Positions 7,824 to 34,661 are shown, counted from the stretch's first letter. The stretch is 64,000 bases of DNA from Bacillota bacterium (GCA_023409735.1 JAEYRB010000006.1:10027-74026), one strand, 5' to 3'. Notes: generated by a model not told the origin, from the sequence alone. Numbers and translations: made by a program.

Positions 7824-7848
7824 TAATGGAAGCTAATCAAAGCATGCA

Positions 7849-7890
7849 AAGGGATTTGCCGTTTATGCGGTGTAATCCCTTGTTTTGTTT
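7849..7890 (+). terminator. rho-independent terminator after rplQ
   Basis: AAGGGATT (7849-7856) pairs with AATCCCTT (7874-7881) and is followed by GTTTTGTTT. Confidence 0.6.
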
Positions 7891-7921
7891 CTAGTTTAAC
7901 ATACCTGCGGGAGGTTGTACT

Positions 7922-9395: not shown

Positions 9396-9603
9396 AGCCA
9401 TTTCCTTTCGAGCGAAAATCAATAAATTAAAGCCAAGTACATTGTATCAGATATATTGTTATTATCTCAACTATGACATTTTTATAAAACTATTTTTATT
9501 TACCTACTAAAACTTAACACTTTCTTAATTATTTGTTCAAGATAGGATATTAGAATGATTATAGTAAAAGAAACGGAGGATAATCTTGAAAGGAGTGTTA
9601 AAA

Positions 9604-11079: not shown

Positions 11080-11267
11080 GAATTTGTTTAAGTAATAATT
11101 GAAGGAAGAATTGTTTTTGAAAGCATAGTAGACATAAAGTACAAGCTTCTGAAGTAAAGCAACAGGTGGAAGAATGCAGAAGCACAAATAGATTTATTTA
11201 GAGTGCATAGAGAAGATGCATATAGTAAAAAGTCTCTTAAGTAAAGCAACACAAGGTTAAGAGAGAA

Positions 11268-11387
11268 GTAATACAAGAGGTAATACAAGAAGTAATACAA
11301 GAAGTAATACAAGAGATAATACAAGAGATAATACAAGAAGTAACACAAGAAGTAATACAAGAGATAACACAAGAAGTAACATAAGAA
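11268..11387. repeat. 10 contiguous copies of a 12-nt unit (consensus GTAATACAAGAA)
   Basis: Units read directly: gtaatacaagag, gtaatacaagaa, gtaatacaagaa, gtaatacaagag, ataatacaagag, ataatacaagaa, gtaacacaagaa, gtaatacaagag, ataacacaagaa, gtaacataagaa. Confidence 0.9.
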
Positions 11388-11427
11388 GCTCCTACAATAA
11401 ATATTTAACAGTAGGGGCTTCTTTCTG
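11385..11427 (+). terminator. candidate rho-independent terminator downstream of the protease gene and the repeat array
   Basis: GAAGCTCCTAC (11385-11395) pairs with GTAGGGGCTTC (11411-11421) with one G-U pair, followed by TTTCTG. Confidence 0.5.
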
Positions 11428-11645: not shown

Positions 11646-12725
11646 ATGAGCTTGCCAAAGACAATGAAGGCTTTAGTTGCGTATGGTGCTAGCAAATATT
11701 GTTATGAACCGGAATATCCTGTTCCTGAGTGTGGTAAGGATGATATTCTAATTAAAACTGAGGGATGTGGAATTTGTGCGGGTGATCTGAAGTGTCAGCA
11801 TGGCTCTGCGATGTTCTGGGGAGATGAAGTTCAGCCTGTATGGGTAAAGCCACCTTTTATTCCCGGACATGAATTTGTCGGCAAAATAGTTTATATTGGG
11901 GAAAATATTAAAGGGTATTGTGTTGATGACCGAATTGTTGTTGACCAAATTGCACCATGTGGTGAATGTCGCTTTTGTAAGGATGGACATTATTGGATGT
12001 GCCAGCCTCACAAAATGTATGGGTTCTTCGAGGAATTCTGCGGTGGTATGGCTGAATATGTTCGTATCCCGGTTAAGAATTCCGTTATACACAAGGTATC
12101 AAAAGATATGGCTCTTGAAGATGCGTTGTTAATTGAACCATACGCTTGTGCCAAGCATTGTGTGGATAGAGCACAAATTTCCTGTGAAGATATAGTTGTA
12201 CTTTCAGGTGCGGGAACACTGGGACTTGGAATGGTAACATATGCAAGGCTGCGAAACCCAAAGCTTCTTATTGTCCTGGATATGTTGGATGGACGATTGG
12301 AAAAGGCAAAGGAGTTCGGGGCTGATCTGGTTTGGAACCCGTCAAAGATGAATGTAGCGGAAGAAATATTAAAGCTGACGGACGGTTATGGATGTGATAT
12401 CTATATTGAGGCGACAGGGCATCCATCTTCAGTAACACAAGGCATGCAGATGATACGAAAGCTTGGAAGATTTGTGGAATTTTCTGTATTCGGAGCTCCT
12501 ACGACACTGGATTGGTCAATTATCGGAGACAGAAAAGAGCTTGATGTACTTGGTTCTCACTTAAGTCCATATTGCTTCCCGTTTGTTATTGAAAATATAG
12601 GTAATGGCAAATTAAAAACAAATGGTGTTGTAAGTAAATTATTTGAACTGAAAGATTGGGAAAAAGCATTTGATTATGCATCCGGTAAATATGGAGACTT
12701 TAAAGTTGGGTTCAAGTTTAAATAA
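11646..12725 (+). CDS. zinc-dependent medium-chain dehydrogenase, polyol/threonine dehydrogenase-like
   Basis: 359 aa with catalytic-Zn context GICAGDL...GHEFVG, structural-Zn cysteines CGECRFCKDGHYWMC, and Rossmann GAGTLGLG. Confidence 0.8.
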   Translation: MSLPKTMKALVAYGASKYCYEPEYPVPECGKDDILIKTEGCGICAGDLKCQHGSAMFWGDEVQPVWVKPPFIPGHEFVGKIVYIGENIKGYCVDDRIVVDQIAPCGECRFCKDGHYWMCQPHKMYGFFEEFCGGMAEYVRIPVKNSVIHKVSKDMALEDALLIEPYACAKHCVDRAQISCEDIVVLSGAGTLGLGMVTYARLRNPKLLIVLDMLDGRLEKAKEFGADLVWNPSKMNVAEEILKLTDGYGCDIYIEATGHPSSVTQGMQMIRKLGRFVEFSVFGAPTTLDWSIIGDRKELDVLGSHLSPYCFPFVIENIGNGKLKTNGVVSKLFELKDWEKAFDYASGKYGDFKVGFKFK

Positions 12726-14743: not shown

Positions 14744-14842
14744 AATATCGGGGTGGGTCATACCTGCCGATTTGCAGCAGCCTACCTTTTATTGAAGCGT
14801 AGTAGCTTTGAAATTATGTGTTAAGAATTTTTGGAGGTTATC

Positions 14843-16159
14843 ATGATAAGTGTTAAAGAAAAGACCGTGGATTTTCTCAAGAAGTATGGTATGTATGCTC
14901 CTGATATCGATCTTGAAAAGAATTGCTTAGATTTTCTTGAGGAGATGGAAAAGGGGCTTGAGGGTAATGAAAGCTCACTAATGATGATACCTACCTATAT
15001 AGGTATGGGAAATGAGTTGCCGCTGAATAAGCCGGTTATTGCTATAGATGCAGGAGGAACCAACCTCAGGGTGGCACTTATTCATTTTGATCAAAGTAAG
15101 AAGCTAATAGTGGAGGATTTCAAGCTGTATCCTATGCCCGGCACAAAGGGTGAAATATCTAAAGAAGAATTCTTTGATACGATTGCAGGCTATATAGAAC
15201 CATTGCTCAGCAGAAGTGATAAAATTAGCTTTTGCTTCTCCTATCCTGCCGATATCCTGCCTAATAAGGATGGAAGAGTGATCAGGCTCTGCAAGGAGGT
15301 AACGGTAAGAGGTATTGAAGGGGAACTTCTGGGTGAAAATCTAATGGCAGCACTTAAAAAACGTGGCTATACTGATGATAAGAGCATTATCGTGCTAAAT
15401 GATGCTGTTTCAACCCTTCTTGCAGGAAGGGCAGCTTATCCGGAAAGAGTATTCGATAGTTACATTGGCTTTATACTGGGAACAGGAACCAATATCTGCT
15501 ATACAGAAAAATTATCTGAGGTAAAGAAGATAAACAGTCCTTGTTCTCCAGATGAATTGATGATCATAAACACAGAATCAGGTATATATGATAAGCTGCA
15601 AAGAAGCGTCATAGACCTGGAATTGGATAGTGCTACTGTAAATCCGGGGGATCATGTCTTTGAGAAGACAATATCAGGAGCATATCAGGGTCCAATGCTG
15701 CTTGCTTTGATTAATAAAGCAGCTGATGAAGGAGAATTCTCAAAGGAAGCGGCCGTGGCACTTAAATGCATAAAAGATCTCGAATCGAAGGAAATAGACG
15801 ACTTCCTTTACTATCCCTATGGCAACAATGTTCTTGCTGAGTGTTGTTCAAAATCCGGTGATGAAAGCGACAGGCTGGCTCTATATTATTTAATCGATGC
15901 TATTTTTGAAAGAATAGCAAGGTTTGTTGTATTTAGCTTGACTGCAACAATGCAGAAGACAGGCAAGGGAACTAACCCTTGTTCACCTATATGTATTACG
16001 GCTGATGGATCGACCTTCTATAAATCAAAGCTTTTCAGGGCAAAGCTTGACTATTATATAAAATCATATACAAATGATATTAAGGGCATATACTGTGAAT
16101 TTGTAAAGGTAGACAACGGATCACTTGTAGGAACTGCAATTGCAGGACTTTTAAATTAA
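14843..16159 (+). CDS. hexokinase-family sugar kinase
   Basis: Motifs IDAGGTNLRVA, FCFSYP, LNDAVSTLLAG and ILGTGTNICY match the hexokinase/actin-fold ATPase signatures. ATG at 14843 after GGAGG. Confidence 0.7.
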   Translation: MISVKEKTVDFLKKYGMYAPDIDLEKNCLDFLEEMEKGLEGNESSLMMIPTYIGMGNELPLNKPVIAIDAGGTNLRVALIHFDQSKKLIVEDFKLYPMPGTKGEISKEEFFDTIAGYIEPLLSRSDKISFCFSYPADILPNKDGRVIRLCKEVTVRGIEGELLGENLMAALKKRGYTDDKSIIVLNDAVSTLLAGRAAYPERVFDSYIGFILGTGTNICYTEKLSEVKKINSPCSPDELMIINTESGIYDKLQRSVIDLELDSATVNPGDHVFEKTISGAYQGPMLLALINKAADEGEFSKEAAVALKCIKDLESKEIDDFLYYPYGNNVLAECCSKSGDESDRLALYYLIDAIFERIARFVVFSLTATMQKTGKGTNPCSPICITADGSTFYKSKLFRAKLDYYIKSYTNDIKGIYCEFVKVDNGSLVGTAIAGLLN

Positions 16160-17717: not shown

Positions 17718-18113
17718 ATGGCTACAAAGATTCAATATTATGGAACTGGAAGAAGGAAAAAGTCTGTTGCAAGAGTCAGGCTTGTTCCAGGAGATGGAAA
17801 GGTAGTAATAAACGATAGAAGCCTTGATGATTATTTCGGACTTGAAACTCTTAAGACTATAGTAAAGCAGCCTTTAGTGCTGACTGATACTTCAGCTAAG
17901 TTTGATGTATTGTGCAAGGTTGCCGGTGGTGGATTAACAGGTCAGGCCGGTGCAATAAGGCATGGTATTTCAAGAGCATTGCTTAAGGCAGATGAGGAGT
18001 TCAGACTTACACTTAAGAAGGCCGGATTCCTTACAAGAGACCCGAGAATGAAGGAAAGAAAGAAATACGGTCTCAAGAAAGCAAGAAGAGCACCACAGTT
18101 CTCAAAGAGATAA
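17718..18113 (+). CDS. rpsI: 30S ribosomal protein S9
   Basis: 131 aa with [14 protein letters not shown] and the C-terminus [12 protein letters not shown]. Confidence 0.95.
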
Positions 18114-18147
18114 TCAAGAAGAAAATTGATTTTTTTGAAGAATACCG

Positions 18148-18176
18148 AAAAAGCCCCGATTTTTGGGGCTTTTTCT
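18148..18176 (+). terminator. rho-independent terminator downstream of rpsI, inside the left end of the element
   Basis: AGCCCC (18152-18157) pairs with GGGGCT (18165-18170), flanked by an A-run and a T-run. Confidence 0.7.
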
Positions 18177-18246
18177 TATGTCTTAAAAGTTTGAAAAATT
18201 GCGAGTTTAGTAACTAAAACAAAGTCATAGCCACACCATAGCCGTA

Positions 18247-18417
18247 TTATAGCCACAACTGAGAATGTTCCATAATAAGATATTCATCTTTATATTGTTC
18301 TTCTACTTCGTCAATATCATTTGCTTCAACAATAAAAGTTGTTTCTTCGTCATCAAAATCTGCATACCATAACCCATTTTCATCATATTTAACCTTTGAT
18401 ACAATAAACGTCATCAT
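18247..18417 (-). CDS. small acidic hypothetical protein (56 aa) of the element
   Basis: Uninterrupted ORF MMTFIVSKVKYDENGLWYADFDDEETTFIVEANDIDEVEEQYKDEYLIMEHSQLWL, abutting the upstream ORF on the same strand. Below the track cutoff, and no family was recognised. Confidence 0.35.
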   Translation of the reverse strand: MMTFIVSKVKYDENGLWYADFDDEETTFIVEANDIDEVEEQYKDEYLIMEHSQLWL

Positions 18418-18418
18418 A

Positions 18419-18649
18419 TTACCCCTTTCTATCTAATTCATTCATAAGTAAATCATTGTGTCTATGCAACATATCAACCTTGTTTTGTAATGTGCGTTCT
18501 TTAGCTGTTAGTGGGTCTCTGTTTTCTTCGGCAGGGGCTTCAGCCTTGCCAGTTAGTTCAGCCCCAGTAACTAATAAAGTGTTGATGTAATTAAGTTTTT
18601 GTTCGTCTGTAAGTTCTATCTTTGGGTACATTGTTGCAACTGGATTCAT
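18419..18649 (-). CDS. hypothetical protein of the element; start uncertain
   Basis: ORF 18419..18718 overlaps the rep 3-prime end, so an internal ATG at 18649 or 18631 is more plausible. The C-terminal part looks coiled-coil. No clear RBS. Confidence 0.3.
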   Translation of the reverse strand: MNPVATMYPKIELTDEQKLNYINTLLVTGAELTGKAEAPAEENRDPLTAKERTLQNKVDMLHRHNDLLMNELDRKG

Positions 18650-19670
18650 ATTTGTATTCTTCGGAATAATCGCCTTTTTTGTCATCAAAGAGGCTTGCAT
18701 AGAAATGGTCTTGTTCAAAACGCAAATGCAATTTACATCTTCGCTTTAACTGAACGATTGGTTCTTTCTGTTCCTTAAATACACCATTGAAAAATTCATC
18801 AATCTTTAATACTGATGTTACTATGATTAGTTTGCATTCTAAAACCTTGTTTTTGTATCTGCTTTTTACAGTAGAAGCAGTATTATTATCCAACATCTTT
18901 AATAAATCACTTAATCCCATGCAACTTGGTCTTAAATCATCAAGAATAATACAATCTTGTCCTGCATATCCGTCAAGTACATCATTAGAGCCACTTGATA
19001 CGAATACACTATAACCTTTATCTTCGCACATCATTTGTGCATATGTACTTTTGCCAGTTCCACTTTTTCCAGTAATATAAACGCATTCCATATTTCTTTT
19101 TGCCCCCTTTATAATATCGGTTCTGTATTTAAATGCATTGTCGATAGATTTCTTATATCTGTCGTATTCGTCAATAGTTATGTGTTTGTGATAGTTAAAT
19201 TCACGAATAACACCACTTACAATGTCATTTATAATTTGGATTTTTCTTGTTTCACTATTAGATTTGTTGATTGCTTTGGTCTTTTCTACTTTCCAGTTGT
19301 AATTACTGGTTACTTCATCTTCTGTGTATTGGTATTTAGTTGGTGCGTTTTCGTGAGTAAGATATTTTAACATATCAACCCATTTTCCTTTTACCTTATT
19401 TATAAAGTTTTCTTTGATACCTAACCAGTTAGCAATATACTTGGTATCTATACCATATTCCAGTCTAATTGCAATATGGTAATGAGCCTTTTTTGGTGTT
19501 CCTGCTTTATGGTCGGGATTTTTAGTTTCATCAGCTTCATTATAAGTATCTTTGTCGTGCAAGATATAAGCATAATCTTTGAACGGTTTTTGATTGTCTA
19601 ATACCTTTACAATTTCTTCAATGTTGATGTGTTCTACATCTGATACGATTTCACATAATCTAACTTGCAT
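18591..19670 (-). CDS. rolling-circle replication initiator: HUH (pMV158 RepB-like) N-domain fused to a P-loop NTPase
   Basis: ILHDKD and KKAHYHIAIRL (HUH motif), then Walker A GKSGTGKST and Walker B IILDDL. The ATG at 19670 lies 6 nt after GGAGGT. Confidence 0.8.
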   Translation of the reverse strand: MQVRLCEIVSDVEHINIEEIVKVLDNQKPFKDYAYILHDKDTYNEADETKNPDHKAGTPKKAHYHIAIRLEYGIDTKYIANWLGIKENFINKVKGKWVDMLKYLTHENAPTKYQYTEDEVTSNYNWKVEKTKAINKSNSETRKIQIINDIVSGVIREFNYHKHITIDEYDRYKKSIDNAFKYRTDIIKGAKRNMECVYITGKSGTGKSTYAQMMCEDKGYSVFVSSGSNDVLDGYAGQDCIILDDLRPSCMGLSDLLKMLDNNTASTVKSRYKNKVLECKLIIVTSVLKIDEFFNGVFKEQKEPIVQLKRRCKLHLRFEQDHFYASLFDDKKGDYSEEYKYESSCNNVPKDRTYRRTKT

Positions 19671-19955
19671 ATACATACCTCCTATAATTTTACTACATAC
19701 GACAGTAAAACTACGCCGAACAGACAAGCCCACTGTTCGGCTATTTTTCAAGCTTTTCAATGGTTTTACTACGTACTACATTGTTGTTTCATAAGTAGCA
19801 TGCAAGATAGAAATCGGTTATGTTTTTTCTGTATAGCCTTTTCATTTAAAAAATTTCCAAAATGAAGATTTTTTAAAAAACATCGGAATTTTATCGAAAA
19901 TTGATTTTATGGGGTGAGGTCAAAAATCACACTTTTTATAAGGAGGTGGAATGAA

Positions 19956-20132
19956 ATGGGAAAATTAAAAGAATGTGATGATGATACTTTTTACAATGCG
20001 TCCATTGATTTTTTAATTGAAGCATTGGCACAAAATGGCATTGAAGAATGTCATAAGCAAATTTCAGTAGATACCGATGATGATTATGCGAAAGTAGAAC
20101 CATACGAAAGAAAGACAACAGAGGAAAGATAA
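19956..20132 (+). CDS. small hypothetical protein (58 aa) upstream of the relaxase
   Basis: ATG preceded by AAGGAGGTGG. Product MGKLKECDDDTFYNASIDFLIEALAQNGIEECHKQ... with no recognised family. Confidence 0.35.
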   Translation: MGKLKECDDDTFYNASIDFLIEALAQNGIEECHKQISVDTDDDYAKVEPYERKTTEER

Positions 20133-20235
20133 GAAGAGCCCCACCTTGCTTGTCAAGGTATAGGGGCTTTACACCTTGGAGCAAGATTTAGAAGCATAGG
20201 CGGTCTTGCTACTGGTGGTTGAGAGGAGGGATTTT

Positions 20236-20988
20236 ATGGCGAAGTTCAGTTTTCATTGTCAATGCTATAAGGCAGGGCAACTTGGGGGAATTGACAAACA
20301 CAACAGACGATTAAACAAGAATTATATCAGCAATCCAGATATAAACTTGGAACGAAGCAAAGAAAATCGTATTTATATTGCACCGAAGCAATCACTTTAT
20401 CAAGATTGTAAGGACATTATAAATAAAAAGGTATTTGCTAATGGTGGCAGGGTTACAAAGGCTTCAAACTGGATATGTGAATGTATATTTTCATATCCTG
20501 AGGAATTACCGATAGAAAGGCTTGATGAATATAACGATTTAGTTATTAAGTATATGGGTGCAAGGATTGGGGCTGATAATATAGTAATGGCTTGTTGTCA
20601 TGTGCAAGATGAGGCAGGTGTTCCCCACCTACATTTAGATATAATACCGATAGACAATGGGAAATTATCGGGTAAGACTTTGATAACAAGGGATTTTATT
20701 ACATCAATCCATAGACTAATGCCTATGGTGTTACAAAATCATGGCTTTAATGTAGAAAGCTACGAAGAAACTGAAGCCCGTAGAACTGGAGGTTTAAGTG
20801 CTAAGGAATACAAGAAGAAAATGGAAGAGGAAAGCAGGGAACTAAACAAGAAACTTGATGAAATGGTTAAGGAATATAATAACTTGGCTGATAAGTATAA
20901 CAAGTTAGTTGAAGATAAGGAAGCATTGGAGCGCAAGAACAGAGATAAGGCTTATGAAGTCATAAAGCAGCAGGAACGAAACCGATAA
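20236..20988 (+). CDS. MobV-family (Mob_Pre) relaxase
   Basis: HVQDEAGVPHLHLDIIP matches the MobV HxDE...PHxH motif. There is an N-terminal HNRR region and a C-terminal coiled coil. ATG at 20236 after GAGGAGGG. Confidence 0.8.
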   Translation: MAKFSFHCQCYKAGQLGGIDKHNRRLNKNYISNPDINLERSKENRIYIAPKQSLYQDCKDIINKKVFANGGRVTKASNWICECIFSYPEELPIERLDEYNDLVIKYMGARIGADNIVMACCHVQDEAGVPHLHLDIIPIDNGKLSGKTLITRDFITSIHRLMPMVLQNHGFNVESYEETEARRTGGLSAKEYKKKMEEESRELNKKLDEMVKEYNNLADKYNKLVEDKEALERKNRDKAYEVIKQQERNR

Positions 20989-21054
20989 AGTTCTTGCATA
21001 ATTTAGAGAATTTGATATAATTGGCACAATTAAATTGAACTTGTGGAGGAAGAT

Positions 21055-21597
21055 ATGATGAATGCTTTGGTAATGAATTGTAGTCCAGTTAGGAACGGAG
21101 CAACTACTGAAATAGTAAATATAATAACAGATTGTTTAAAAGAGAAGTATGAGGTTAATAGTGTTTGTATTGACGATTATAACTTTAACTTTTGTAAAGG
21201 ATGTCGTTCGTGTCATAATACTGCAAAATGCATTCAACATGATGATGTTGATAAGATAATTGAACAATATGAATATGCAGATGTGATAATATCGGTAGCA
21301 CCTTCTTATTGGGCAGATATTCCAGGACAATTTAAAGCATTCATTGATAGGTGTACACCTTGGTGTAATACCCATGAACCACATGCTACGATAAGCACTG
21401 GAAAGAAAGGTTATTCAATTGCATTAAGAACAGGTCCAAGTATGAAAGAATGTAATCGTATTATTGAGAGTATTGAGCATTTTTATGGGCATATGGAAAT
21501 TGAATGTTGTGATAGTATGGGCTTATGTTCGATAGAGTATAAAGAAGCAGTAGAACCAAGAAAGGCTGAAATTATTGAGTTCTGCAAAAAAATATAA
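21055..21597 (+). CDS. flavodoxin-like-fold, iron-sulfur-flavoprotein-like NAD(P)H-dependent reductase (element cargo)
   Basis: N-terminal MNCSPVRNGAT (flavodoxin-like fold) followed by the cysteine cluster CKGCRSCHNTAKC. Confidence 0.6.
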   Translation: MMNALVMNCSPVRNGATTEIVNIITDCLKEKYEVNSVCIDDYNFNFCKGCRSCHNTAKCIQHDDVDKIIEQYEYADVIISVAPSYWADIPGQFKAFIDRCTPWCNTHEPHATISTGKKGYSIALRTGPSMKECNRIIESIEHFYGHMEIECCDSMGLCSIEYKEAVEPRKAEIIEFCKKI

Positions 21598-21759
21598 GAT
21601 AGTTTTGATACTGGACATTGTGCCAGTATCTTTTTTAATCCCCAAAACACCGAAATATTTAGAAGAAATATTATATAAATCCCACTTTGCAAAGTGTGGC
21701 TACGGAGTTATAATATTTATATCAATTTACTTCTTATTATTCAGCGAAAAGAGGACATT

Positions 21760-22848
21760 ATGAAACTACCTAACGGATATGGAAGTGTTAGCAAGGTTAA
21801 TAGAAAGAACTTACGAAAGAAGTACATAGCAAGGATTACTACGGATATTGAAATTGATGAGCAGGGCAAGAAACATCAGCACAAAAAGACAATAGGCTAT
21901 TTTGAAACAAAGGAAGAAGCCTTAAATGCCTTGACAAATTACAATATGAATAAAGACGAAGTAAACATTTTATTTATGAACATCACTTTTACTGATTTAT
22001 GGGAAGAATGGCAGGAAAGCGAAAAGGTTCAAGCATTAAAGCCAGATACCATAAAGGGTTATGAATTCTCTTATAAATTGATTACCGATAAAATCAAAAA
22101 AATGAAGTTTATAGACATTAAGTTTAATGACTTGCAGAATATGATAAATGAATTATTGGGCAACAGAAAAGGTTATCAATCGGTAAGAAAAGTTAAGAAT
22201 TGCATTAAGCAGTTGTATGATTATGCTATTAAATGTGATATTGTCAGTAAGAATTATGGCGAGTTGCTTGATATAGGTAAGATCCCACGCAAAGGGCAAG
22301 CGTTAATATTTACTGATGAACAGATAGAACGCTTATGGAAGTTGTATTACGAACAGAACAAAGATACAAGGCTGACTATCGAGATTATGCTTATGTTGAT
22401 GTATAATGGTTGCCGAATAAGTGAGTTCTTATGTCTTAAAATAGAAGATATGAATTTGAAAGACCGGTATTTCAATGTTACCGATAGCAAGACAGACGCA
22501 GGTATAAGACAAGTTCCTATTAGTGACAAGGTTATCAATATCTATGAAAGCATTGTAAACGAAAGAGAAAAGGGTTATTTCCTTATTAACCCGAATAATA
22601 AGAGAAAGTTTACATATGCTAATTTTAGAGATAGTTACTGGGATAGAATGATTGACTTGCTTGGTTGGGATAAGAAGTTGACACCACATAATTGCAGAAA
22701 GACTTGCATTTCAAAATTGACAAAAGCAGGTGTAAGACCTACATACATTAGATTGATTGTCGGTCATGAGGGTGCGTTGGATTTGACGGAAAAGACATAC
22801 ACCTATGTAGACTTTGAAGAACTGTTAAAAGCAATCAATGAAATATAG
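21760..22848 (+). CDS. int: tyrosine-type site-specific integrase
   Basis: C-terminal catalytic context (RISEF..., HNCRKT, LIVGHEG, YTY) and an N-terminal arm-binding-like region (LPNGYGSVSKV). ATG at 21760. Confidence 0.85.
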   Translation: MKLPNGYGSVSKVNRKNLRKKYIARITTDIEIDEQGKKHQHKKTIGYFETKEEALNALTNYNMNKDEVNILFMNITFTDLWEEWQESEKVQALKPDTIKGYEFSYKLITDKIKKMKFIDIKFNDLQNMINELLGNRKGYQSVRKVKNCIKQLYDYAIKCDIVSKNYGELLDIGKIPRKGQALIFTDEQIERLWKLYYEQNKDTRLTIEIMLMLMYNGCRISEFLCLKIEDMNLKDRYFNVTDSKTDAGIRQVPISDKVINIYESIVNEREKGYFLINPNNKRKFTYANFRDSYWDRMIDLLGWDKKLTPHNCRKTCISKLTKAGVRPTYIRLIVGHEGALDLTEKTYTYVDFEELLKAINEI

Positions 22849-22936
22849 CCACATTGTAGCCACACTTGGACTGAAATACAAGTAAAATAAACAAATCACA
22901 ATACGCCAAGAGATAAATTGTATATTATATACGTCG

Positions 22937-22969
22937 AAAAGCTGCAGACATTACGTTTGCAGCTTTTTT
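22937..22969 (+). terminator. rho-independent terminator following the second att-like repeat
   Basis: AAAAGCTGCA (22937-22946) pairs with TGCAGCTTTT (22958-22967), then a T-run. Confidence 0.65.
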
Positions 22970-23265
22970 GCGACCAGTTTTGTGTATGGCAGCATTGACG
23001 AGGGGACGGGGCTGGTGTCAACGGTGGCCAGTGATGGGTTATTGTACAATATGGTTCTATGTCAATAATTAAGGCTGGTACTCTAGTAAAAAAATAGCTA
23101 TATTTATCTGACAAATACCTCTTGAAATTCTAACTCTGAAGGCATTTCTCTTATTTATCTTGATTTTGTTGTTCACTCCTCAGTTTGGTCTGTCAGCGAA
23201 GGCGGATAAAATCAAGATCGACGGTTTCGTTTTCATAAAAGCGTATGGGCGTGATGGGGCCATGT

Positions 23266-23362
23266 CGGACTTTTTGTAACCGAAACTATGTTTTATGTCG
23301 AAAAAATCATGTTTCATGCAGTGGACGGTTCCTAAGAGAGATTTTTGATATATTGAACATGA
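23266..23362 (+). promoter_or_regulatory. conserved upstream element, copy 1 (shared with 27324-27420)
   Basis: 97 nt with 12 mismatches against copy 2 by hand alignment. It ends about 55 nt before the ATG of the downstream gene. Confidence 0.5.
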
Positions 23363-23416
23363 GGACAAAGGATCTTATTTTGGCCAAACAACAATGTTTA
23401 AAGGAGGAACAATATT

Positions 23417-26400
23417 ATGAAGAAACGATTTGCGAGCATACTTCTCATCGTATGCATGGTATTGACGCTGTTACCGGCTACGGCAAGTGCAGGAGAGAGC
23501 TTCAATAACTTTGTGGACCGGATGCGTAGCGAGTACGACGTGATTATCTCTTGTGATCGCAGTATCCCACTCACAGCCAAGGAGCAGGGCTATATTGAAA
23601 CAGCTCTCAGTGCATGGGGCAAGGAGTATGTCCGTACGATCTCAGGAGCCTTTGCGTCAAGCAAGTATTTCGGAAGTACGGAAACACTCAGTTCAACACG
23701 CATGAAGATTATTATTAGCAATCTAAGCGGGGACGCAGAGGCCGGTTTATATGGTAAAGCCTCAGGTGAAAAGCTCTACTTATACGGCGATATTTGGGAT
23801 GACGTGACCTTCCATCACGAGTTCGCCCATATGGTGAAGCACGCTTGTGAAAGCGCCAGTAGCGTTAACTGTTACGGTAAGTTTTCTGAACTCATCAAGG
23901 CGGCAAACAGTGACGCCATCAGTGTAAGCGGCGATTATAAATCTGCCTGGAAGCCGGGAGTCGATGAGTCATTCTATGCTTGGAGCTATGGCAAATATTC
24001 TCCCGATGAGGACATTGCCACCATTATGCCCAATACCACAGACTCAAAATGGGCAGAGAAGGTGAAAAATGGCGAAATGCCGGTCATCACAAAAAAACTT
24101 CAGGCCTTTCGCAATTACTATGAGAAGTATCTGACAGGTGGAAGCATACCATGTCCCTTGATAGACAATATTCTGGGGCCTTCTACCAATCATTCCACTG
24201 AGGCTATGGGTACATACTTCAATCTCATTACCACCAAAATGAATGCTGGAGAAACCTTCAAGCTCGAGATAATTGGCAGCTACCCTATCACAGCCACCGA
24301 GCGCTTTGAGATTACAAGCATAAGGTCAATGGACCCCAAAATTATCAAGGTAGACCAAAACACTGGTATTATAACCGCCTTATCTGAGGGATCTACGTTA
24401 GTGAGTTATGGCTTTAAGACAGCAACTCAGACCAGCAACATAGGTTTCACTATTACAGTAACAGGGTCCGTCCTACCCACGGATGTTCGATTCGACTTCC
24501 CCACAACCTTAAAAGTTGGTGATAAATTCAAACCCACCATCACTCTTCTTCCTGAGGGCTCAATCGCCCCAGCAGAGCCACGGTGGTCCTACTCGACCAA
24601 CCAAGTAATCACCTTTAAGGATGGCGAGTTGATCGCCCAGAGGCCTGGCAAATCCACCCTCACCTGTTTGCTGGACCATATGGATCTGAAAGTCCCGGTA
24701 GAGATTACCGTGGAGGCTGCCACGGTTACCGGCATAACCTTGAATGAGACCTCAGTTACAAAGACAGCCGGCAGCACAATACAGCTAAAGCCAACTCTGG
24801 AACCTGCCGGTTCTAATGGAGCAGTGACCTATTCCTCCTCTGACGAGAGTGTGGCCACTGTCAATACCAATGGTCTTGTCACCACCAAAAAGGCGGGTAC
24901 CGCCACCATCACGGCCAAGGTGGGAACTCTTACTGCCACTTGCACGGTTACTGTTACACCGGCTGCCGTTGCCGGCATCAGTCTAGCCCCTGCTCAAGCG
25001 GGAATCAAGGTGGGACATACCGTCCAGTTAGAGCATACCTTCATACCTGCCGGGGCTGTGGGCACAGTGAACTATACTACCTCTGACGCGTCTGTGGCTG
25101 CTGTTAGCGGCACAGGCCTGGTCACCGGCAAGAAGACGGGTACGGCTACAATCATTGTCAAGTCGGGTAACTTTTTTGCCACCAGTAAAATTACCGTATC
25201 CAACACCGATCCCACCGGCATAACCCTGGGCAAAGCGACCGCCACGGTGGAGGCGGGTAAGTCGATTCAGCTTACCGCCGCCCTGACCCCAGCTGGGGCC
25301 GGGGGTACAGTGACCTATTCCTCCTCTGACACGGGTGTGGCTACCGTGAGCGCCGCCGGGCTTGTCACCGGCAAGAAGGCGGGTACCGCCACCATAACAG
25401 CCAAGGTGGGAACTTTGTCCACCACCTGTAAAATTACTGTAACCAGCATCGCGCCTACCGGCATCACCATGAGCAGAGCCAATGCTACGGTGGAGGCGGG
25501 TAAGACGATTCAGCTTACCGCCGCCCTAACCCCAGCTGGGGCCGGGGGCACAGTGACCTATTCCTCATCTGATACGGGGGTAGCTACTGTGAGCGCCGCC
25601 GGGCTTGTCACCGGCAAGAAGGCTGGTACCACCACCATCACAGCCAAGGTGGGAGCTTTGTCGACCACCTGTAAAATTACTGTAACAAGCATTGCGCCCA
25701 CTGGCATAACCCTGGGCAAAACGACCGCCACGTTGGAGGCGGGTAAGACAATTCAGCTTACCGCCGCCCTAACCCCAGTTGGGGCCGGGGGCACAGTGAC
25801 CTATTCCTCCTCTGACACGGGGGTGGCTACCGTGAGCGCCGCCGGGCTTGTCACCGGCAAGAAGGCTGGTACCACTACCATCACAGCCAAGGTGGGAGCT
25901 TTATCGACCACCTGTAAAATTACTGTAACCAGCATCGCGCCCACCGGCATAACACTGGGCAAAGCGACCGCCACGGTGGAGGCGGGTAAGTCCATTCAGC
26001 TTACCGCTGCACTAACCCCAGCTGGGGCCGGGGGCACAGTGACCTATTCCTCATCTGATACGGGGGTAGCTACTGTGAGCGCCGCCGGGCTTGTCACTGG
26101 CAAGAAGGCTGGTACCACCACCATCACAGCCAAGGTGGGAACTTTGTCTACTACCTGTAAAATTACTGTAACGGCGGCACTCGAGACAACGATTGCGGGT
26201 GGCTGGTACAATCTTCGTGTTATGAACAACTACATCAATATCAGTGCCGCAGGGAACGCGGAGCTGCGCAGCAATACGAAAAACCAGGCCTTTTATGTAG
26301 ATAATAAGGGAGGCATGCAAGTAACCCTGAAAACGGTGGATGGAAAATATCTGGGAGTGTCCGGCACTGTGAAGGATGGCGTACAGTTAAAGGAAGTAGA

Positions 26401-27151
26401 CAGCCCGTATATTTGGAACATCTACTCCGAAAAAAAGACCGATATCTTTAGCCTGCGCCCGCCTGACAAAGTCAAAATGGTCGTCAATGCCTCGGGACAG
26501 AATAGCGAGGACGGAACGCAGATCATTTTGTGGACGCATGAGAACCTGGATGCTCCTAACCACGCCGAAATTAGGTTTATTACCACGCAAGCGCCCGGAG
26601 CAGGGACTGCAAAGCATCCCTTTAACGATGTTCCAAAGGGCACGTACTATGAAAATCCGGTCATTTGGGCTCTGAACAACGGCGTCACCAGCGGAACCTC
26701 CGCCACGAACTTCGCACCAGGTGAAACCTGCACAAGAGGACAGGTCGTAACTTTCCTGTGGAGAGCCAAGGGCAGTCCCGAGCCTGCTTCGACCGTTAAC
26801 CCTTTCTCCGATGTTAAAGCTTCCGATTATTTTTACAAGGCGGTGCTATGGGCGGTTGAGAAGGGCATCACTAGCGGCACAAGCGCCACTACATTTAGCC
26901 CGAACTCTACCTGCACCAGCGGTCAAGTGGTGACGTTCCTATGGCGCTCAAACGGTAGTCCCAAAGCCACCGGCACAAGTAGCCTTGCGGCACAATACAG
27001 CGGTCAATACTACTCCGACGCCGTGGCTTGGGTGGACAGCACAGGACTGCTAGCAGGCACAGGTACAGCCTTTGCGCCCAACAGCAATTCTCCACGCGCC
27101 GACATTGTCACTTATCTCTATCGCAACGCGGGAAGCCCGGCGATTCAATAG
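23417..27151 (+). CDS. secreted multidomain cell-surface protein: HExxH domain, about 8 Ig-like (Big_2-type) repeats, beta-trefoil-like module, three SLH-like repeats
   Basis: Signal peptide MKKRFASILLIVCMVLTLLPATASA and the motif HHEFAHM. Repeated units of about 81 aa (GITL..TVTYSSSD..VATV..GLVTGKKAGTATITAK). Three C-terminal F.DV...Y....W......TSGTSATTF.P...CTRGQVVTFLWR repeats. Confidence 0.85.
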   Translation: MKKRFASILLIVCMVLTLLPATASAGESFNNFVDRMRSEYDVIISCDRSIPLTAKEQGYIETALSAWGKEYVRTISGAFASSKYFGSTETLSSTRMKIIISNLSGDAEAGLYGKASGEKLYLYGDIWDDVTFHHEFAHMVKHACESASSVNCYGKFSELIKAANSDAISVSGDYKSAWKPGVDESFYAWSYGKYSPDEDIATIMPNTTDSKWAEKVKNGEMPVITKKLQAFRNYYEKYLTGGSIPCPLIDNILGPSTNHSTEAMGTYFNLITTKMNAGETFKLEIIGSYPITATERFEITSIRSMDPKIIKVDQNTGIITALSEGSTLVSYGFKTATQTSNIGFTITVTGSVLPTDVRFDFPTTLKVGDKFKPTITLLPEGSIAPAEPRWSYSTNQVITFKDGELIAQRPGKSTLTCLLDHMDLKVPVEITVEAATVTGITLNETSVTKTAGSTIQLKPTLEPAGSNGAVTYSSSDESVATVNTNGLVTTKKAGTATITAKVGTLTATCTVTVTPAAVAGISLAPAQAGIKVGHTVQLEHTFIPAGAVGTVNYTTSDASVAAVSGTGLVTGKKTGTATIIVKSGNFFATSKITVSNTDPTGITLGKATATVEAGKSIQLTAALTPAGAGGTVTYSSSDTGVATVSAAGLVTGKKAGTATITAKVGTLSTTCKITVTSIAPTGITMSRANATVEAGKTIQLTAALTPAGAGGTVTYSSSDTGVATVSAAGLVTGKKAGTTTITAKVGALSTTCKITVTSIAPTGITLGKTTATLEAGKTIQLTAALTPVGAGGTVTYSSSDTGVATVSAAGLVTGKKAGTTTITAKVGALSTTCKITVTSIAPTGITLGKATATVEAGKSIQLTAALTPAGAGGTVTYSSSDTGVATVSAAGLVTGKKAGTTTITAKVGTLSTTCKITVTAALETTIAGGWYNLRVMNNYINISAAGNAELRSNTKNQAFYVDNKGGMQVTLKTVDGKYLGVSGTVKDGVQLKEVDSPYIWNIYSEKKTDIFSLRPPDKVKMVVNASGQNSEDGTQIILWTHENLDAPNHAEIRFITTQAPGAGTAKHPFNDVPKGTYYENPVIWALNNGVTSGTSATNFAPGETCTRGQVVTFLWRAKGSPEPASTVNPFSDVKASDYFYKAVLWAVEKGITSGTSATTFSPNSTCTSGQVVTFLWRSNGSPKATGTSSLAAQYSGQYYSDAVAWVDSTGLLAGTGTAFAPNSNSPRADIVTYLYRNAGSPAIQ
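25201..26172 (+). repeat. four near-identical in-frame 243-bp tandem repeats (Big_2-type units)
   Basis: The repeat-unit junction motif AAAATTACTGTAAC recurs at 25431, 25674, 25917 and 26160 (period 243). Encoded units differ at only a few residues. Confidence 0.9.
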
Positions 27152-27230
27152 GAAATGTTGAAACAGTATTATGTATAGTGTGTTTTGGATTGTGTGATTC
27201 CGTACCTCGGTACTCAAAGAGATAAACGTC

Positions 27231-27263
27231 AAAAAACCGCAAGCATTGTGCTTGCGGTTTTTT
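27231..27263 (+). terminator. rho-independent terminator after the surface protein gene and the third att-like repeat
   Basis: CCGCAAG (27237-27243) pairs with CTTGCGG (27251-27257), flanked by an A-run and TTTTTT. Confidence 0.7.
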
Positions 27264-27323
27264 ATGGGCTCAGTGTCAATAATCGGGGCGGGCCTCTAGC
27301 AAAATAAATAATAATATTTTTTC

Positions 27324-27420
27324 CCGACTTTTTATAACCGGAACCATATTTTATGTCGAAAAAATCATGTTACATACAGTGGATGGTTTTTGCGAGAGAT
27401 TTTTGATATATTGAACATGA
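27324..27420 (+). promoter_or_regulatory. conserved upstream element, copy 2
   Basis: Homologous to 23266-23362. It ends 50 nt before the ATG at 27471. Confidence 0.5.
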
Positions 27421-27470: not shown

Positions 27471-30278
27471 ATGATGAAAAAACGACTTATGAGTATTTTG
27501 CTTATCCTGTGCATTGTTATGACCGTGCTGCCGTTATCGATAATGGCGGCGGAAGGTAGTACACCCGCTACTGAGTCGAGCAATACAAGCGGGACTCAAA
27601 ACTACTATGACAGTGATGTTACATGGCTCGGCACCACATCCGAGTATCAAAAGACCCTCAATGTTTTCTTTGATTCAGGATTGCGCAAGGTAGAGGTGAA
27701 CGACAAATACGGACTAGTTGACAGGAACGGAGCCTTCATTGTGCAGCCAATCTATGATGAGATCCAAGCCTACTACATGCACAAAGAAAGAGGTAAAACT
27801 GCTTCAATAGACCAAAATTTAAGAGCAGAAAAAATATTCGTTGATGGATATGTTCAGGCAAAACGAAATGGGAAAATGGGATTGCTTGATAACAAGGGCA
27901 AAGAAGTCATTCCCTGTAACTATGATGCGGTGGGACTACCATCGGAGGGCATATGCCGTATCAGTAAAAATACAAAAGGAAAGACTTACATTGGCTATTG
28001 GAGCCTGACACAAGGTAAGGAGATTGTTGCGCCAAATAAGTATGTTCTCCCCTATGGTTACGAAGATTTAGGAAATCCACAGGGAGGTGAAATACAAGGG
28101 TTCTGTATGCCCGATATCGGTGAAGATAGGATTGCCGTGGCATTTGACTTCTATGACGGATATGCGCTGGTTACTACAGGGAAAGAGGTTAAGGTTACTG
28201 AAGAGTGTGTAACCAATAGCAGTAACAACTGTTCAAGAACATTGGTCTATGCTCAAATTATTGATAAAAACGGTAAGGAAATACTAAAAGGTGGACCGTA
28301 CCCTTTTAATATAAATCCGGCAATTTCTAAAGATTATCCGCAGGCAGGACAGTATATGGTTTACGACCAGCTCTCCACAAAAAGGATTCGTATGAAAACG
28401 GATGCCGGGGATGAGGTAACCTTTAAGTCCCATCTTGAGTCCGGTATTGTCGGGCCGAAAGGCATTCTTATAAAAGCGCAATATCATGGTGGTATTTGGG
28501 GTAACTCAGCAGTAGGATGGTATGCACCTGGTGCCCAGATGAAGATCATTCCTGAACTGTCATTGGCTTTAACGCTGAATTGTGGTTACGAAGGTATCAA
28601 AGAATCTGCCGCTAAAATCGGTGTTATTAATTTCAGCAACAAGGTTATTATTCCTTTTGGAAGTAATAATTATTTATACTATGATTCCGAGAGCAAGGTG
28701 TTTGTTGCAGAAATGGGTAAACCTGTATATAAGCCCGATGGGACCAAGATTTCCGGAACAGAAAAACGGTCAGACTATCTTATTGTGAATGGTTATGCTA
28801 TATTAGGAGAAGAAGGAGATGATACGGACAATTTCGCATTATCTCCCAAGAAAGTTATATCAGTAAAGACTGGTAAAACCTATTCCATCGTAAATATAAA
28901 GGGTTCTGTCTGTTCTATGGTAAGTGCCAAGGACACCCTTTGGGTGAAAAAAAACAACAAGTGGGGGTTTATCAATGTAAGTGGTAAAATAATACTTCCA
29001 TTTGAGTACGAGGATATAAATATCTCTGCTTGGCAAGATAAATCAAAACCCTATGCTCTTGTAAAGAAAAGCGGGAAGTGGGGCATGGTTGACACAACAG
29101 GCAAAGTGCTTTTAGAGTGCAAATATAGCTCCATAGGATGGGGCGATGATGATTATTTCAATATCAAGGATTCTAGCACAGGAAAATATGGAATATATAA
29201 CTATAATACTTTTAAAATCACAACTCCATGCATTATGGAAGGTGTAATTAACGGCTCAATCTTTTTGGAGAATGGGTGGGGAAGTATTGGTGGTACAGTG
29301 CCTATTAATGTTGGAAATAGCCTGAACGCTCTATTTGATATGGACACCGGAAAACAAGTCACTTCCACTTATTTAGTAATGAAACCATCAAGCCGTGGAT
29401 TGTTTTATAACACCTATAATAATTACTTTGGACCAGATGGGCGAAGTGTATTTAACAGAGCTGAAGACTCAATAAACTATACGCTTGTAGTAAAAGACGG
29501 AAAAGTCGGTTCTATCAACGTATCAAGACTAAAAATAGGCGGCAAGCTGCCCACTGCAACCTATGCCAAACCTGTGCCTGAGACAATAACGCCTAGAGGC
29601 TATATTGTTGCGTATCCGGAAAATCGGGTTTATATGATAGGGGATGGCTTCGATATAACAGGTCTTATTGTACATTATTCAGATGAGAATGGAGTTCGCA
29701 GTATTGTAGATAATTCAAAGCTTAAGCTTTACACATCTGGTACTGTTGAACTGACGCAGGGCAGAGCATTTACAGCCGGCGGAATAAAAACGGTTGAAGT
29801 TCAGTATGACGGCAAAAAGGTTGATACATTCGATGTTAATGTTATACCAAAAGAAGCAGGTAATATTCTGCGGGATGGTGATTATTATATGCAAATCTTT
29901 GGTAAGTACATTTATCCGGTAAATGGAAATGGTACTTTATGGTTAGAGCTTTCGGACAAAAAACCTGATAAGCCGTTTACTGTAAAACTGATAAACTATA
30001 GCGAAGACCGTGGGCCTGCGTATACGATATCTTATGACGGGACAAATATCGGCCAGCCATCCTCACAGAATGGGGTTCAGTTGCAAACAGCGGCACTTAC
30101 CCATGTGTGGAGAATCAATAAATATTCTAACTTCTGCACTATCCGGGATTATGGTAACCAACAGCTGATTGTTAACGCAAGCGGTGAAAAGAGTGCTAAT
30201 GGTACAAAAGTCATTGTATGGAAAAAAACAGGGTCGGCACCGGAACACGCAAAAATAAAGTTTATAAAAGCTGACTGA
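27471..30278 (+). CDS. secreted protein with WG-containing repeats, an Ig-like domain and a C-terminal beta-trefoil-like module
   Basis: ATG after AGGAGG and signal peptide MMKKRLMSILLILCIVMTVLPLSIMAAEG. Repeated KYGLVD/KMGLLD/KWGFIN/KWGMVD units. The C-terminus is similar to the trefoil-like module of 23417..27151 (LIVNASGEKSANGTKVIVW versus MVVNASGQNSEDGTQIILW). Confidence 0.8.
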   Translation: MMKKRLMSILLILCIVMTVLPLSIMAAEGSTPATESSNTSGTQNYYDSDVTWLGTTSEYQKTLNVFFDSGLRKVEVNDKYGLVDRNGAFIVQPIYDEIQAYYMHKERGKTASIDQNLRAEKIFVDGYVQAKRNGKMGLLDNKGKEVIPCNYDAVGLPSEGICRISKNTKGKTYIGYWSLTQGKEIVAPNKYVLPYGYEDLGNPQGGEIQGFCMPDIGEDRIAVAFDFYDGYALVTTGKEVKVTEECVTNSSNNCSRTLVYAQIIDKNGKEILKGGPYPFNINPAISKDYPQAGQYMVYDQLSTKRIRMKTDAGDEVTFKSHLESGIVGPKGILIKAQYHGGIWGNSAVGWYAPGAQMKIIPELSLALTLNCGYEGIKESAAKIGVINFSNKVIIPFGSNNYLYYDSESKVFVAEMGKPVYKPDGTKISGTEKRSDYLIVNGYAILGEEGDDTDNFALSPKKVISVKTGKTYSIVNIKGSVCSMVSAKDTLWVKKNNKWGFINVSGKIILPFEYEDINISAWQDKSKPYALVKKSGKWGMVDTTGKVLLECKYSSIGWGDDDYFNIKDSSTGKYGIYNYNTFKITTPCIMEGVINGSIFLENGWGSIGGTVPINVGNSLNALFDMDTGKQVTSTYLVMKPSSRGLFYNTYNNYFGPDGRSVFNRAEDSINYTLVVKDGKVGSINVSRLKIGGKLPTATYAKPVPETITPRGYIVAYPENRVYMIGDGFDITGLIVHYSDENGVRSIVDNSKLKLYTSGTVELTQGRAFTAGGIKTVEVQYDGKKVDTFDVNVIPKEAGNILRDGDYYMQIFGKYIYPVNGNGTLWLELSDKKPDKPFTVKLINYSEDRGPAYTISYDGTNIGQPSSQNGVQLQTAALTHVWRINKYSNFCTIRDYGNQQLIVNASGEKSANGTKVIVWKKTGSAPEHAKIKFIKAD

Positions 30279-33458: not shown

Positions 33459-34187
33459 TTATCCTAAAAGATTAGTCATTGATTTATAAATAAGGAAAAT
33501 GCCTATACTCACAACAACTAATGGAGTAAGTATACTTGAATACTTACTCATTTTTTCTTTTATTATGCTATATAATTTATCTACTTTATTTTGAAATTTA
33601 ACATATAAAACATATAATATAATTAATGGTGAAGAATAAATGAGGTTATATAATAGCATTATTAAAACTACAGTTAAAACTGGCAGTTCATAGTTGAGTA
33701 TAATTGATATAAAAGCGAAGTATGGCAATGCTGTGGGAATCTCACAAATTGTTGCTACAGAACCTAAAAAGAATAGTGATACTGGATTGAGGCTTTTGAA
33801 CTTTAATAATGTATTACTCTCTACCAAGTGCTCTGCAAAATCTCCTTTTAAGCTAGAGGTTTTATTTTCAGGAGACTTGTCTTTTTTTTTCATAATTGAA
33901 TAACTTACAGCAACTAAAACTAATATTCCTAAAATTAGTCCAGCTGTATAGACTAATTGAGAATACCTATCCAGGATCATATTCATATAGTTTTTGACAA
34001 CTGCTGCCAGACCATAATACACTAACATACCACCAATAAAATTCACTGTTGCTGTTGCAACAATAAAATACCAGATATGATGCCTTTTCTTGACAAGTCC
34101 TTGAAGTACAAATTGTTGTGTAATTCCTACAGGATTTAGACTATCTATAGCACTTGTAGTAATCGTTGCAATTAATAATGATAACAT
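33459..34187 (-). CDS. uncharacterized polytopic membrane protein (242 aa), downstream of the ykkC riboswitch
   Basis: About 6 hydrophobic segments split by a charged central loop (KKKDKSPENKTSSLKGDFAEH). ATG at 34187. Confidence 0.6.
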   Translation of the reverse strand: MLSLLIATITTSAIDSLNPVGITQQFVLQGLVKKRHHIWYFIVATATVNFIGGMLVYYGLAAVVKNYMNMILDRYSQLVYTAGLILGILVLVAVSYSIMKKKDKSPENKTSSLKGDFAEHLVESNTLLKFKSLNPVSLFFLGSVATICEIPTALPYFAFISIILNYELPVLTVVLIMLLYNLIYSSPLIILYVLYVKFQNKVDKLYSIIKEKMSKYSSILTPLVVVSIGIFLIYKSMTNLLG

Positions 34188-34344: not shown

Positions 34345-34468
34345 AAAAAAAGCCTACAGAGATATCAAAATATCTCCTAGGCTTTTGTCCCTCCGTGAGC
34401 ACAGTAGAAACTGTGCGTTTTCTCTCGGACCAGACTAATCTGTACTCAGACTACGGAACCCTAGAAAA
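34345..34468 (-). ncRNA. ykkC-yxkD (guanidine-I-like) riboswitch with terminator expression platform
   Basis: The minus strand reads CTAGGGTTCCG...CTGGTCCGAGAGAAAAC-(hairpin GCACAG/CTGTGC)-CACGGAGGGACAAAAGCCTAGGAGAT. This matches the conserved ykkC blocks. A terminator hairpin overlaps the aptamer 3-prime end, followed by a U-run. Confidence 0.75.
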
Positions 34469-34661
34469 CTAAATACTACTAAAATTTAAATGTATACATA
34501 AGATATCATAATAATTTGTTTAAATCAATGGTTATAATCTGATAGAGTATGATATTCTTCTTCGGGTAATGATAACTCTAATTGATATTATTGGTAAAAA
34601 ACATTATAATAAAGTTACAACGGAATGTTATGTATACAAAGTAAACTATAGGAGGGCACAT

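Follow-up and report, generated by a model that had tools for sequence, protein, structure and literature searches.

The window, by which we mean the whole 64,000-nt stretch of DNA that was analyzed, contains two copies of a 97-nt element on the plus strand, one at 23266–23362 and the other at 27324–27420, and each copy lies upstream of a gene for a large secreted protein. This arrangement raises the question of what the element does at the two genes. Our analysis led us to replace the speculative sigma-factor reading given in the original prediction with a concrete circuit, which consists of an operator at 23288–23321 and an extended −10. Each copy is probably a promoter of the sigma-A extended −10 type that depends on a response regulator of the LytTR family, and we assign this reading, which is drawn from sequence comparisons, a probability of about 80%. 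The operator and the extended −10 would put two large surface proteins under two-component control. The element is most likely a new example of a known switch type, as the same promoter adjoins the regulator gene in many other Bacillota.

Architecture of the two copies in the window

An ungapped alignment of the two copies confirmed the 12 mismatches in 97 positions that had been counted by hand (87.6% identity), and a self-comparison of the window aligned 95 nt of both copies at 88%. Outside the element, the copies compared at equal offset were 23% identical over the 66 nt upstream, 24% identical over the 54-nt leader, and 30% identical over the first 64 coding nucleotides. This collapse in identity from 88% to approximately 23% beyond the element indicates that the conserved block is sharp-edged. 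Exact sub-blocks of 23 and 27 nt within the element each occurred only at these two sites in the window and were found in 0 of 100 shuffles. The block further upstream that had been reported as shared, GTCAATAAT..CTCTAG.AAAA, is also common to both copies, being found on the plus strand at 23061–23098 for copy 1, within the duplicated rpsI-downstream intergenic region, and at approximately 27272–27310 for copy 2. In copy 1 alone, an insert of ~165 nt (23099–23265) separates this block from the element; the insert ends in a terminator-like hairpin (23248–23266) directly before the element. We side with the original prediction in regarding the conservation as non-coding and regulatory and as the mark of a shared promoter region. 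The TAACCG...CGAA arrangement that it described is present in both copies as well, with a spacing of 16 nt and not the 17 nt that had been given.

Copy 1 is laid out as a 9-nt direct repeat, 12 bp, a second 9-nt direct repeat, 8 bp, CGGTTC, 14 bp, and TGATATATT. In both copies, the direct repeats follow the 13-nt consensus ATGTTTyATGyvG, are phased by 21 bp from start to start, and leave a 12-nt gap between the 9-mer cores. Repeat A of copy 1, ATGTTTTATGTCG, occupies 23288–23300 (9-mer core, 23288–23296) and corresponds to columns 2–14 of the family logo described below, while repeat B, ATGTTTCATGCAG, occupies 23309–23321 (9-mer core, 23309–23317) and corresponds to columns 23–35; the two match at 10 of 13 positions, the family mean being 9.7 of 13. 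Between them lies the A-tract spacer AAAAAATC (23301–23308), whose logo columns 15–20 are A in 84–91 of the 91 copies. The 5′ flank TAACCGAAACT (23277–23287) aligns with ATAnCCGAAAC, which stands ahead of box A in the family, and it is not maintained in the orthologs of gene 2. A third in-phase repeat in the TAACCG flank was ruled out, the CGAAA-to-CGAAA spacing being 18 nt and not 21 nt.

Downstream of the repeats of copy 1, a weak −35-like hexamer, CGGTTC (23326–23331), is located 8 bp past the repeat B 9-mer and 14 bp before the TG, in a region where logo columns 40–46 are conserved. The extended −10, TGATATATT (23346–23354), corresponds to the TGnTAnnnT that is found at a fixed position in the family and begins 28 nt beyond the repeat B 9-mer. 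Transcription from copy 1 is predicted to start at 23361–23362, which is 7–8 nt past the −10 and is where conservation stops; in sigma-A promoters, transcripts begin 6–8 nt beyond the −10. The leader that would result (23363–23416) is unconserved and has no significant fold, and it contains an RBS, GGAGG, at 23403–23407. Copy 2 carries the corresponding repeat A (ATATTTTATGTCG, 27346–27358), repeat B (ATGTTACATACAG, 27367–27379), −35-like hexamer (TGGTTT, 27384–27389), and extended −10 (TGATATATT, 27404–27412), all on the plus strand. The predicted leaders measure ~55 nt for copy 1 and ~51 nt for copy 2, with the start codons 56 and 52 nt past the predicted start. At logo column 8, where C is near-invariant, both window copies have T. 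In copy 2, repeat B is further changed at column 28 (T>A, where T is found in 91/91) and column 32 (G>A, where G is found in 89/91), and these two extra changes at near-invariant positions suggest that the response of copy 2 may be weakened. A sigma-70 −35/−10 scan upstream of genes 1 and 2 predicted no promoter, because the scan demands a −35; the extended −10 was recognized solely through comparative alignment.

Both downstream genes encode large signal-peptide proteins, as had been proposed. Gene 1 (23417–27151, plus strand) encodes a 1244-aa secreted protein with six Big_2, RicinB-like, and SLH domains, and gene 2 (27471–30278, plus strand) encodes a 935-aa secreted protein with WG_beta_rep repeats. 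The N-terminal 460 aa of gene 1 (23417–24796) contain an HExxH motif (FHHEFAHM) in a stretch to which Pfam assigned no family, and no relatives of this N-terminal domain were found in the species-representative genome collection; judging from the motif, the region could be a metalloprotease domain.

Several other features of the window were recorded. A guanidine-I riboswitch (Rfam RF00442, 88.8 bits) is located on the minus strand at 34372–34475, upstream of a gene for an SfLAP/Sap-like membrane protein (33459–34187, minus strand). A 12-nt tandem repeat (AGAAGTAATACA-like, ~15 units) at 11228–11407 lies between the genes for an HtrA-like protease (9586–11079) and a zinc alcohol dehydrogenase (11646–12725), and a 57-nt tandem repeat (~6 units) at 51220–51561 is found in the C-terminal extension of an MFS transporter gene (49573–51816). 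The ORF at 14831–16159, between an ECF-transporter-like region and truA, gave strong Pfam matches to Hexokinase_1 and Hexokinase_2, a hexokinase fold of the eukaryote type.

Conservation of the element in other genomes and its linkage to a LytTR regulator

Searching with the protein identified orthologs of gene 2 in Lutispora thermophila DSM 19022, a Lutispora MAG, and two Bacillota MAGs, and those of Lutispora and the related MAGs have the same promoter. In L. thermophila (contig NZ_FQZS01000007.1), the promoters are located at 4881–4955 and 7846–7914 of locus L004. The parts kept in the orthologous upstream regions and in the window copies were T.ATGTC[AG]AAAAAATC, TTTCATGCA, and AGATTT.TG.TA.A.T, the last of which fits the Firmicute extended −10 (TRTGnTAnAnT), and TAACCG showed no conservation in the orthologous promoters. 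When the species-representative genome collection was scanned for the motif and then searched with nhmmer, ~55 full-length copies were recovered in many Clostridia; both window copies matched the nhmmer core model, copy 1 with E = 1e-19.

The genes that neighbor the element pointed to a candidate regulator. In the Lutispora MAG, genes for a Response_reg+LytTR protein and a HATPase_c_5 kinase are located divergently, just upstream of the gene 2 ortholog, and tblastn placed LytTR/kinase pairs beside gene 2 homologs at at least six further loci. The intergenic regions of the more distant gene 2 homologs contained 21-bp-phased repeats, each followed by an extended −10, and the repeats form a graded series that runs from the AgrA-like ACAGTTCAG / ACCGTTCAG through ACATTTCAGGG and GTGTTTCGTGCAG to ATGTTTCATGCAG. 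The divergent gene beside the motif-sampled copies, where present, was repeatedly the LytTR regulator; one such regulator is encoded at L005 4065–4808. As this first sample had been chosen by motif, loci were re-sampled by homology to the response-regulator protein alone, and relatives of the regulator were found to be encoded in 207 stretches of the species-genome collection. Among the best 80 of these 207 loci (76–84% identical, the query's own locus aside), 78 carried the element on the opposite strand, ~55–110 nt upstream of the regulator start codon, and one of the two exceptions had merely 44 nt of upstream sequence. Taxonomically, the regulator ranged from Lutisporales to Gorillibacterium (Paenibacillaceae, class Bacilli), so that its relatives span Clostridia and at least one genus of Bacilli, with L. 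thermophila DSM 19022 as a cultured carrier. The same divergent arrangement of element and regulator was found on a complete replicon of Acetoanaerobium noterae. In the plasmid collection, the regulator occurred in one record only, a 2.6-Mb replicon labeled as a plasmid, which does not demonstrate carriage on a small or mobilizable plasmid. The bit scores of the regulator against the NCBIfam equivalog models were 58 versus a cut-off of 246 for BtsR, 53 versus 375 for LytR, and 40 versus 400 for AgrA.

A family logo was then drawn from 91 copies at 77 loci in other genomes, the loci being those sampled by the regulator protein, and the ~75-nt consensus of these copies was TATGTTTCATGTCGAAAAAATCATGTTTCATGCAGCGGACGGTTTTTTAGGGAAATTTTTGATAGATTGAACATGA. 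Both repeats, the A-tract, GGACGGTTTT, and TG.TA...T were near-invariant, with a variable stretch in between. The extended −10 TGnTAnnnT was found at a fixed position in 85 of the 91 copies and TAnnnT in all 91. By column, T63, A64, and T68, which stand for the conserved T−12, A−11, and T−7 of the sigma-A −10, were present in 91/91 copies, and the T and G at columns 60–61 in 88/91 each. Nearly all copies (90/91) were directed away from the regulator gene, and the first RBS-preceded start codon fell 25–70 nt past the predicted start in 56 of 82 cases. Arrays of three to four repeat units with the same 21-bp phasing were observed at some loci.

Three classes of genes were found behind the element copies. 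They encode LemA (often together with DUF2207), small lipoproteins, or large secreted proteins whose signal peptide reads MKKRxMSILLxLCMxLTLLP, and it is the last class that includes genes 1 and 2. The near-invariant operator allows a simple regulon prediction in these genomes, comprising LemA/DUF2207, lipoproteins, S-layer-anchored proteins, and lectin-like proteins. A search of the full-text literature for the motif, and for LytTR together with LemA or DUF2207, returned no description of the regulon, which thus appears to be new to the searchable literature. In many genomes (loci L001–L210; in the window, 23417–23491 and 27471–27548), a near-identical signal peptide (MKKRxMSILLxLCMxLTLLP..A.A) was observed on unrelated mature proteins, whose mature parts carry Big_2/SLH, WG-repeat, BspA-LRR, or ricin-like domains. 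From its sequence, the combination of promoter and signal peptide looks like a cassette.

No LytTR regulator gene was found in the 64-kb window by tblastn and Pfam scans, and the regulator is presumed to be present in the source organism. In the MAG OH_CFB_174, a relative, the gene 2 ortholog (L003) and the regulator (L147) are located on different contigs, which makes it plausible that the regulator would act in trans on the window promoters. In the proposed mechanism, the repeats, spanning approximately −73 to −41, would bind a dimer of the phosphorylated LytTR response regulator, and the bound regulator would recruit RNA polymerase carrying the housekeeping sigma-A to a promoter whose extended −10 is good but whose −35-like CGGTTY is weak. 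From start points near 23361 and 27419, transcription would produce the unconserved leaders, and genes 1 and 2 would be members of a single regulon controlled by a membrane histidine kinase of the GHKL (AgrC-like) type. The sequences directly show the architecture of the element, its pattern of conservation, and its position beside the regulator gene in other genomes, and we infer binding, activation, and the start sites.

The regulator-adjacent copies (L131–L210) showed a second, divergent extended −10, TATGGTAAA, on the opposite strand ~16–28 nt upstream of repeat A. Repeat A overlies the −35 region of this divergent regulator/kinase promoter, and this overlap suggests that the regulator/kinase operon may be autoregulated; LytTR regulators are usually linked to their target promoters and control their own expression. 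No AgrB/AgrD-like peptide genes were seen beside the regulator-kinase operon in the inspected loci, and a peptide pheromone signal is therefore not indicated.

Alternative explanations and the history of the locus

Among the alternatives, the one that survives best retains the sigma-A promoter and its operator repeats and assigns the repeats to another regulator, or else regards the promoter as orphaned, that is, silent or constitutive for want of its regulator. The window does lack a regulator gene, and both copies deviate at conserved positions of the repeats. However, the linkage between element and regulator at the best loci (78/80) argues against this possibility, as do the length and phasing of the repeats and their distance from the promoter, all of which have the values of LytTR sites, together with the YpdB-like core TTTCATGC. 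The MAG of a close relative, in which the regulator resides on another contig, also speaks against it. We consider this alternative unlikely, and a LytTR-dependent promoter remains the preferred reading.

The original prediction had offered an alternative-sigma promoter of the sigma-I/ECF type, in which TAACCG would serve as the −35 and CGAA would serve as the −10, and had taken the downstream part for a shared 5′ UTR. Clostridial sigma-I promoters share the consensus AAA-N13-14-CGWA, both parts of which are conserved to more than 85%, and the consensus for sigma-I6 of C. thermocellum is CNNAAA-N13-CGAA-N3-AT (PMC4711584). Copy 1 fits the sigma-I6 consensus, some family members have a C-rich run and AAA 13–14 nt before CGAA (e.g., CCCCTAAA-N14-CGAA at L188), and the window includes a pair of genes for an ECF sigma factor (Sigma70_r2, r4_2) and a zf-HC2 anti-sigma factor (57460–58706). 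Nevertheless, AAA-N13-14-CGWA was found in just 32 of the 91 family copies, and the CGAA columns carried C in 69/90 and G in 64/90 copies, against more than 85% in true sigma-I elements. Copy 2 is without the AAA triad (GGAAC) and so falls outside the sigma-I consensus. ECF promoters (AAC ... CGT/GTC) keep an AAC in the −35, about 16–17 nt ahead of the −10, and the AAC of TAACCG is missing from the orthologous promoters L001, L003, L004, and L005. The proposed signature is thus not family-wide, and it is the sigma-A extended −10 that is conserved instead. No sigI-rsgI pair was found in the window (Pfam, most ORFs of ≥100 aa) or beside any family member, whereas the LytTR regulator was adjacent in 78 of the best 80 loci. 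The ECF/zf-HC2 pair lies 30 kb from the element, and no similar motif upstream of the pair links it to the element. The apparent CGAA/AAA match is explained by the 21-bp tandem unit, in which an A-tract and a repeat are followed by CG or AG; the CGAA (23299–23302) straddles the junction of repeat A with the A-tract spacer. The idea of a shared 5′ UTR did not hold either, because conservation stops at the predicted start, the leaders are 24% identical, and the supposed UTR contains the near-invariant extended −10 and no conserved fold. An alternative-sigma promoter is, in our judgment, very improbable. Two further sigma-factor candidates were rejected. For sigma-54, TGGATGGTTTTTGC in copy 2 reads GG-N9-GC, one position away from the expected spacing, and has no counterpart in copy 1 or the orthologs. 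For a sporulation sigma-E/K promoter, the stretch proposed as the −10 (CATACAGT, copy 2) is repeat B, and the linkage to the regulator explains it.

Still less probable is that the similarity is a passive remnant of a segmental duplication or of the import of a mobile element and has no regulatory role. The duplication does extend beyond the element and takes in an rpsI 3′ remnant, the terminator after it, and the GTCAATAAT block, each of which is present twice, as is the element. Three rpsI 3′ ends were found, i.e., the real one at 18092–18113 and displaced remnants at 22895–22916 and 27204–27224. Behind each remnant come a terminator, the GTCAATAAT block, and the promoter, and the two terminators are homologous and differ by compensatory changes in the stem. 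By alignment, the second of the three copies, with an original-looking terminator, occupies 22895–22972 and the third 27204–27264, after gene 1, both on the plus strand. An integrative mobilizable element also adjoins copy 1; it lies at the rpsI 3′ end, between the real end and the first remnant (18092–22972), and encodes a Rep with a helicase domain (18591–19760, minus strand), a Mob_Pre relaxase (20206–20988), an FMN reductase (21043–21597), and a tyrosine integrase (21694–22848). Against a passive remnant, the identity falls from 88% to ~23% exactly at the element edges, position-by-position conservation extends over 75 nt in the 91 copies at 77 loci of other genomes, and the copies keep a fixed orientation and distance to the downstream start codon. 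The duplication history does not make the element functionless, given the position-specific constraint in the 91 copies.

The least probable alternative, a cis-acting RNA (a riboswitch or leader structure) with the stem TCATGTTTCA / TGAACATGA, is highly improbable: a 9–10-bp stem is drawable in both window copies, but Rfam gave no match either at its gathering threshold or with the E-value limit raised to 10, the fold z-scores were 0.40 and −1.20, all nine pairs were kept in 0 of 85 family members (mode, 6/9), and the 5′ arm, which is upstream of the predicted start, is invariant while the 3′ arm is variable, so that there is no covariation.

With the LytTR-dependent promoter as the preferred reading, the history of the two cassettes can be considered. 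In a related MAG (L008, 4781–5400), an rpsI remnant and a terminator were found before a truncated element fused to frame-broken fragments of a gene 2 homolog; this locus adjoins a transposase fragment and is a decayed version of the locus in the window. From the order of the rpsI remnant, the terminator, and the broken element before gene 2 fragments in this MAG, the ancestral order was likely rpsI, terminator, promoter, and gene 2, and gene 1 with its promoter copy was likely added later, either through duplication or through import into the same attachment site. Gene 1 and copy 1 are bracketed by attachment-site-like remnants, which suggests either tandem accretion or the import of a cassette, and the window illustrates how a promoter-gene cassette can be duplicated or imported at an rpsI attachment site. 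More tentatively, the regulator/kinase pair, the nearly invariant 75-nt promoter, and the signal peptide might form a horizontally spread module for surface-protein expression, a possibility that we regard as doubtful on balance. It is supported by the 76–84% identity of the regulator from Lutisporales to Paenibacillaceae and by the position of gene 1 and its promoter between rpsI remnants and beside a mobilizable element, which suggests that a cassette ready to respond may have been imported into a genome that already bore the regulon. If it were true, unrelated secreted and cell-wall proteins would have been plugged in behind one promoter-plus-signal-peptide cassette.

Comparison with known LytTR-dependent systems

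LytTR regulators bind two repeats of 9–11 nt with 11–13 nt between them (PMC4847170). The LytTR operon promoters of S. mutans are arranged as DR9-12-DR9, 4–11 bp, a weak −35, 13–17 bp, and an extended −10 (PMC6193735, Table 2), with TGATAGACT, TGATATACT, and TGCTATAGT as examples of the extended −10; the HdrR promoter was tested by EMSA and reporter fusions, and the other four were identified by a sequence scan (PMC6193735). The window element has the layout of the promoters of the LytTR regulators AgrA, ComE, YpdB, and HdrR, with agreement in the number and length of the repeats, the 11–13-nt spacing, the weak −35 at 8 bp, and the extended −10, whose sequence is close to identical to those of the S. 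mutans promoters.

The geometry of the HdrR and BrsR promoters of S. mutans is almost identical to the DR9-12-DR9, 8 bp, CGGTTY, 14 bp, TGATAKATT of the element. As for the element, the HdrR/BrsR site is in the promoter region of the regulator's own gene, an arrangement that suggests autoregulation. The regulators themselves differ, since HdrR and BrsR, which have no receiver domain, are kept in check by a membrane inhibitor, whereas the element-linked regulator is a classical phospho-accepting one with a kinase. The sequences of the repeats differ as well, reading ACCnCTTAn for HdrR/BrsR and ATGTTTCAT for the family.

The YpdB site is GGCATTTCAT-N11-GGCATTTCAT(GC) (PMC4847170). Like the window copies, the YpdB (PyrR) site in the E. 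coli yhjX promoter consists of direct repeats of ~10 nt at 21-bp phasing, and its core, GGCATTTCAT(GC), resembles the family core ATGTTTCATGC. Repeat B of copy 1 resembles the YpdB site GGCATTTCATGC, as does the repeat core of the element. YpdB belongs to a two-component system as its LytTR response regulator, and we propose a regulator of this kind for the element too. Differences were found in the kinase, which is of the LytS type for YpdB and a GHKL/HATPase_c_5, AgrC-like kinase for the element, and in the targets, which are a transporter for YpdB, in contrast to the surface proteins, LemA, and lipoproteins behind the element.

In the quorum-sensing promoters controlled by AgrA (P2/P3), ComE, and PlnC/D, 9-bp direct repeats separated by 12 bp precede a poor −35, and in these systems a LytTR regulator works with a multi-pass kinase of the AgrC-like type. 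The element resembles them in repeat length, spacer, the poor −35, and the pairing of an AgrC-like kinase with a LytTR regulator, and the AgrA-like boxes of the graded series are found at the more distant homologous loci L010, L011, and L013.
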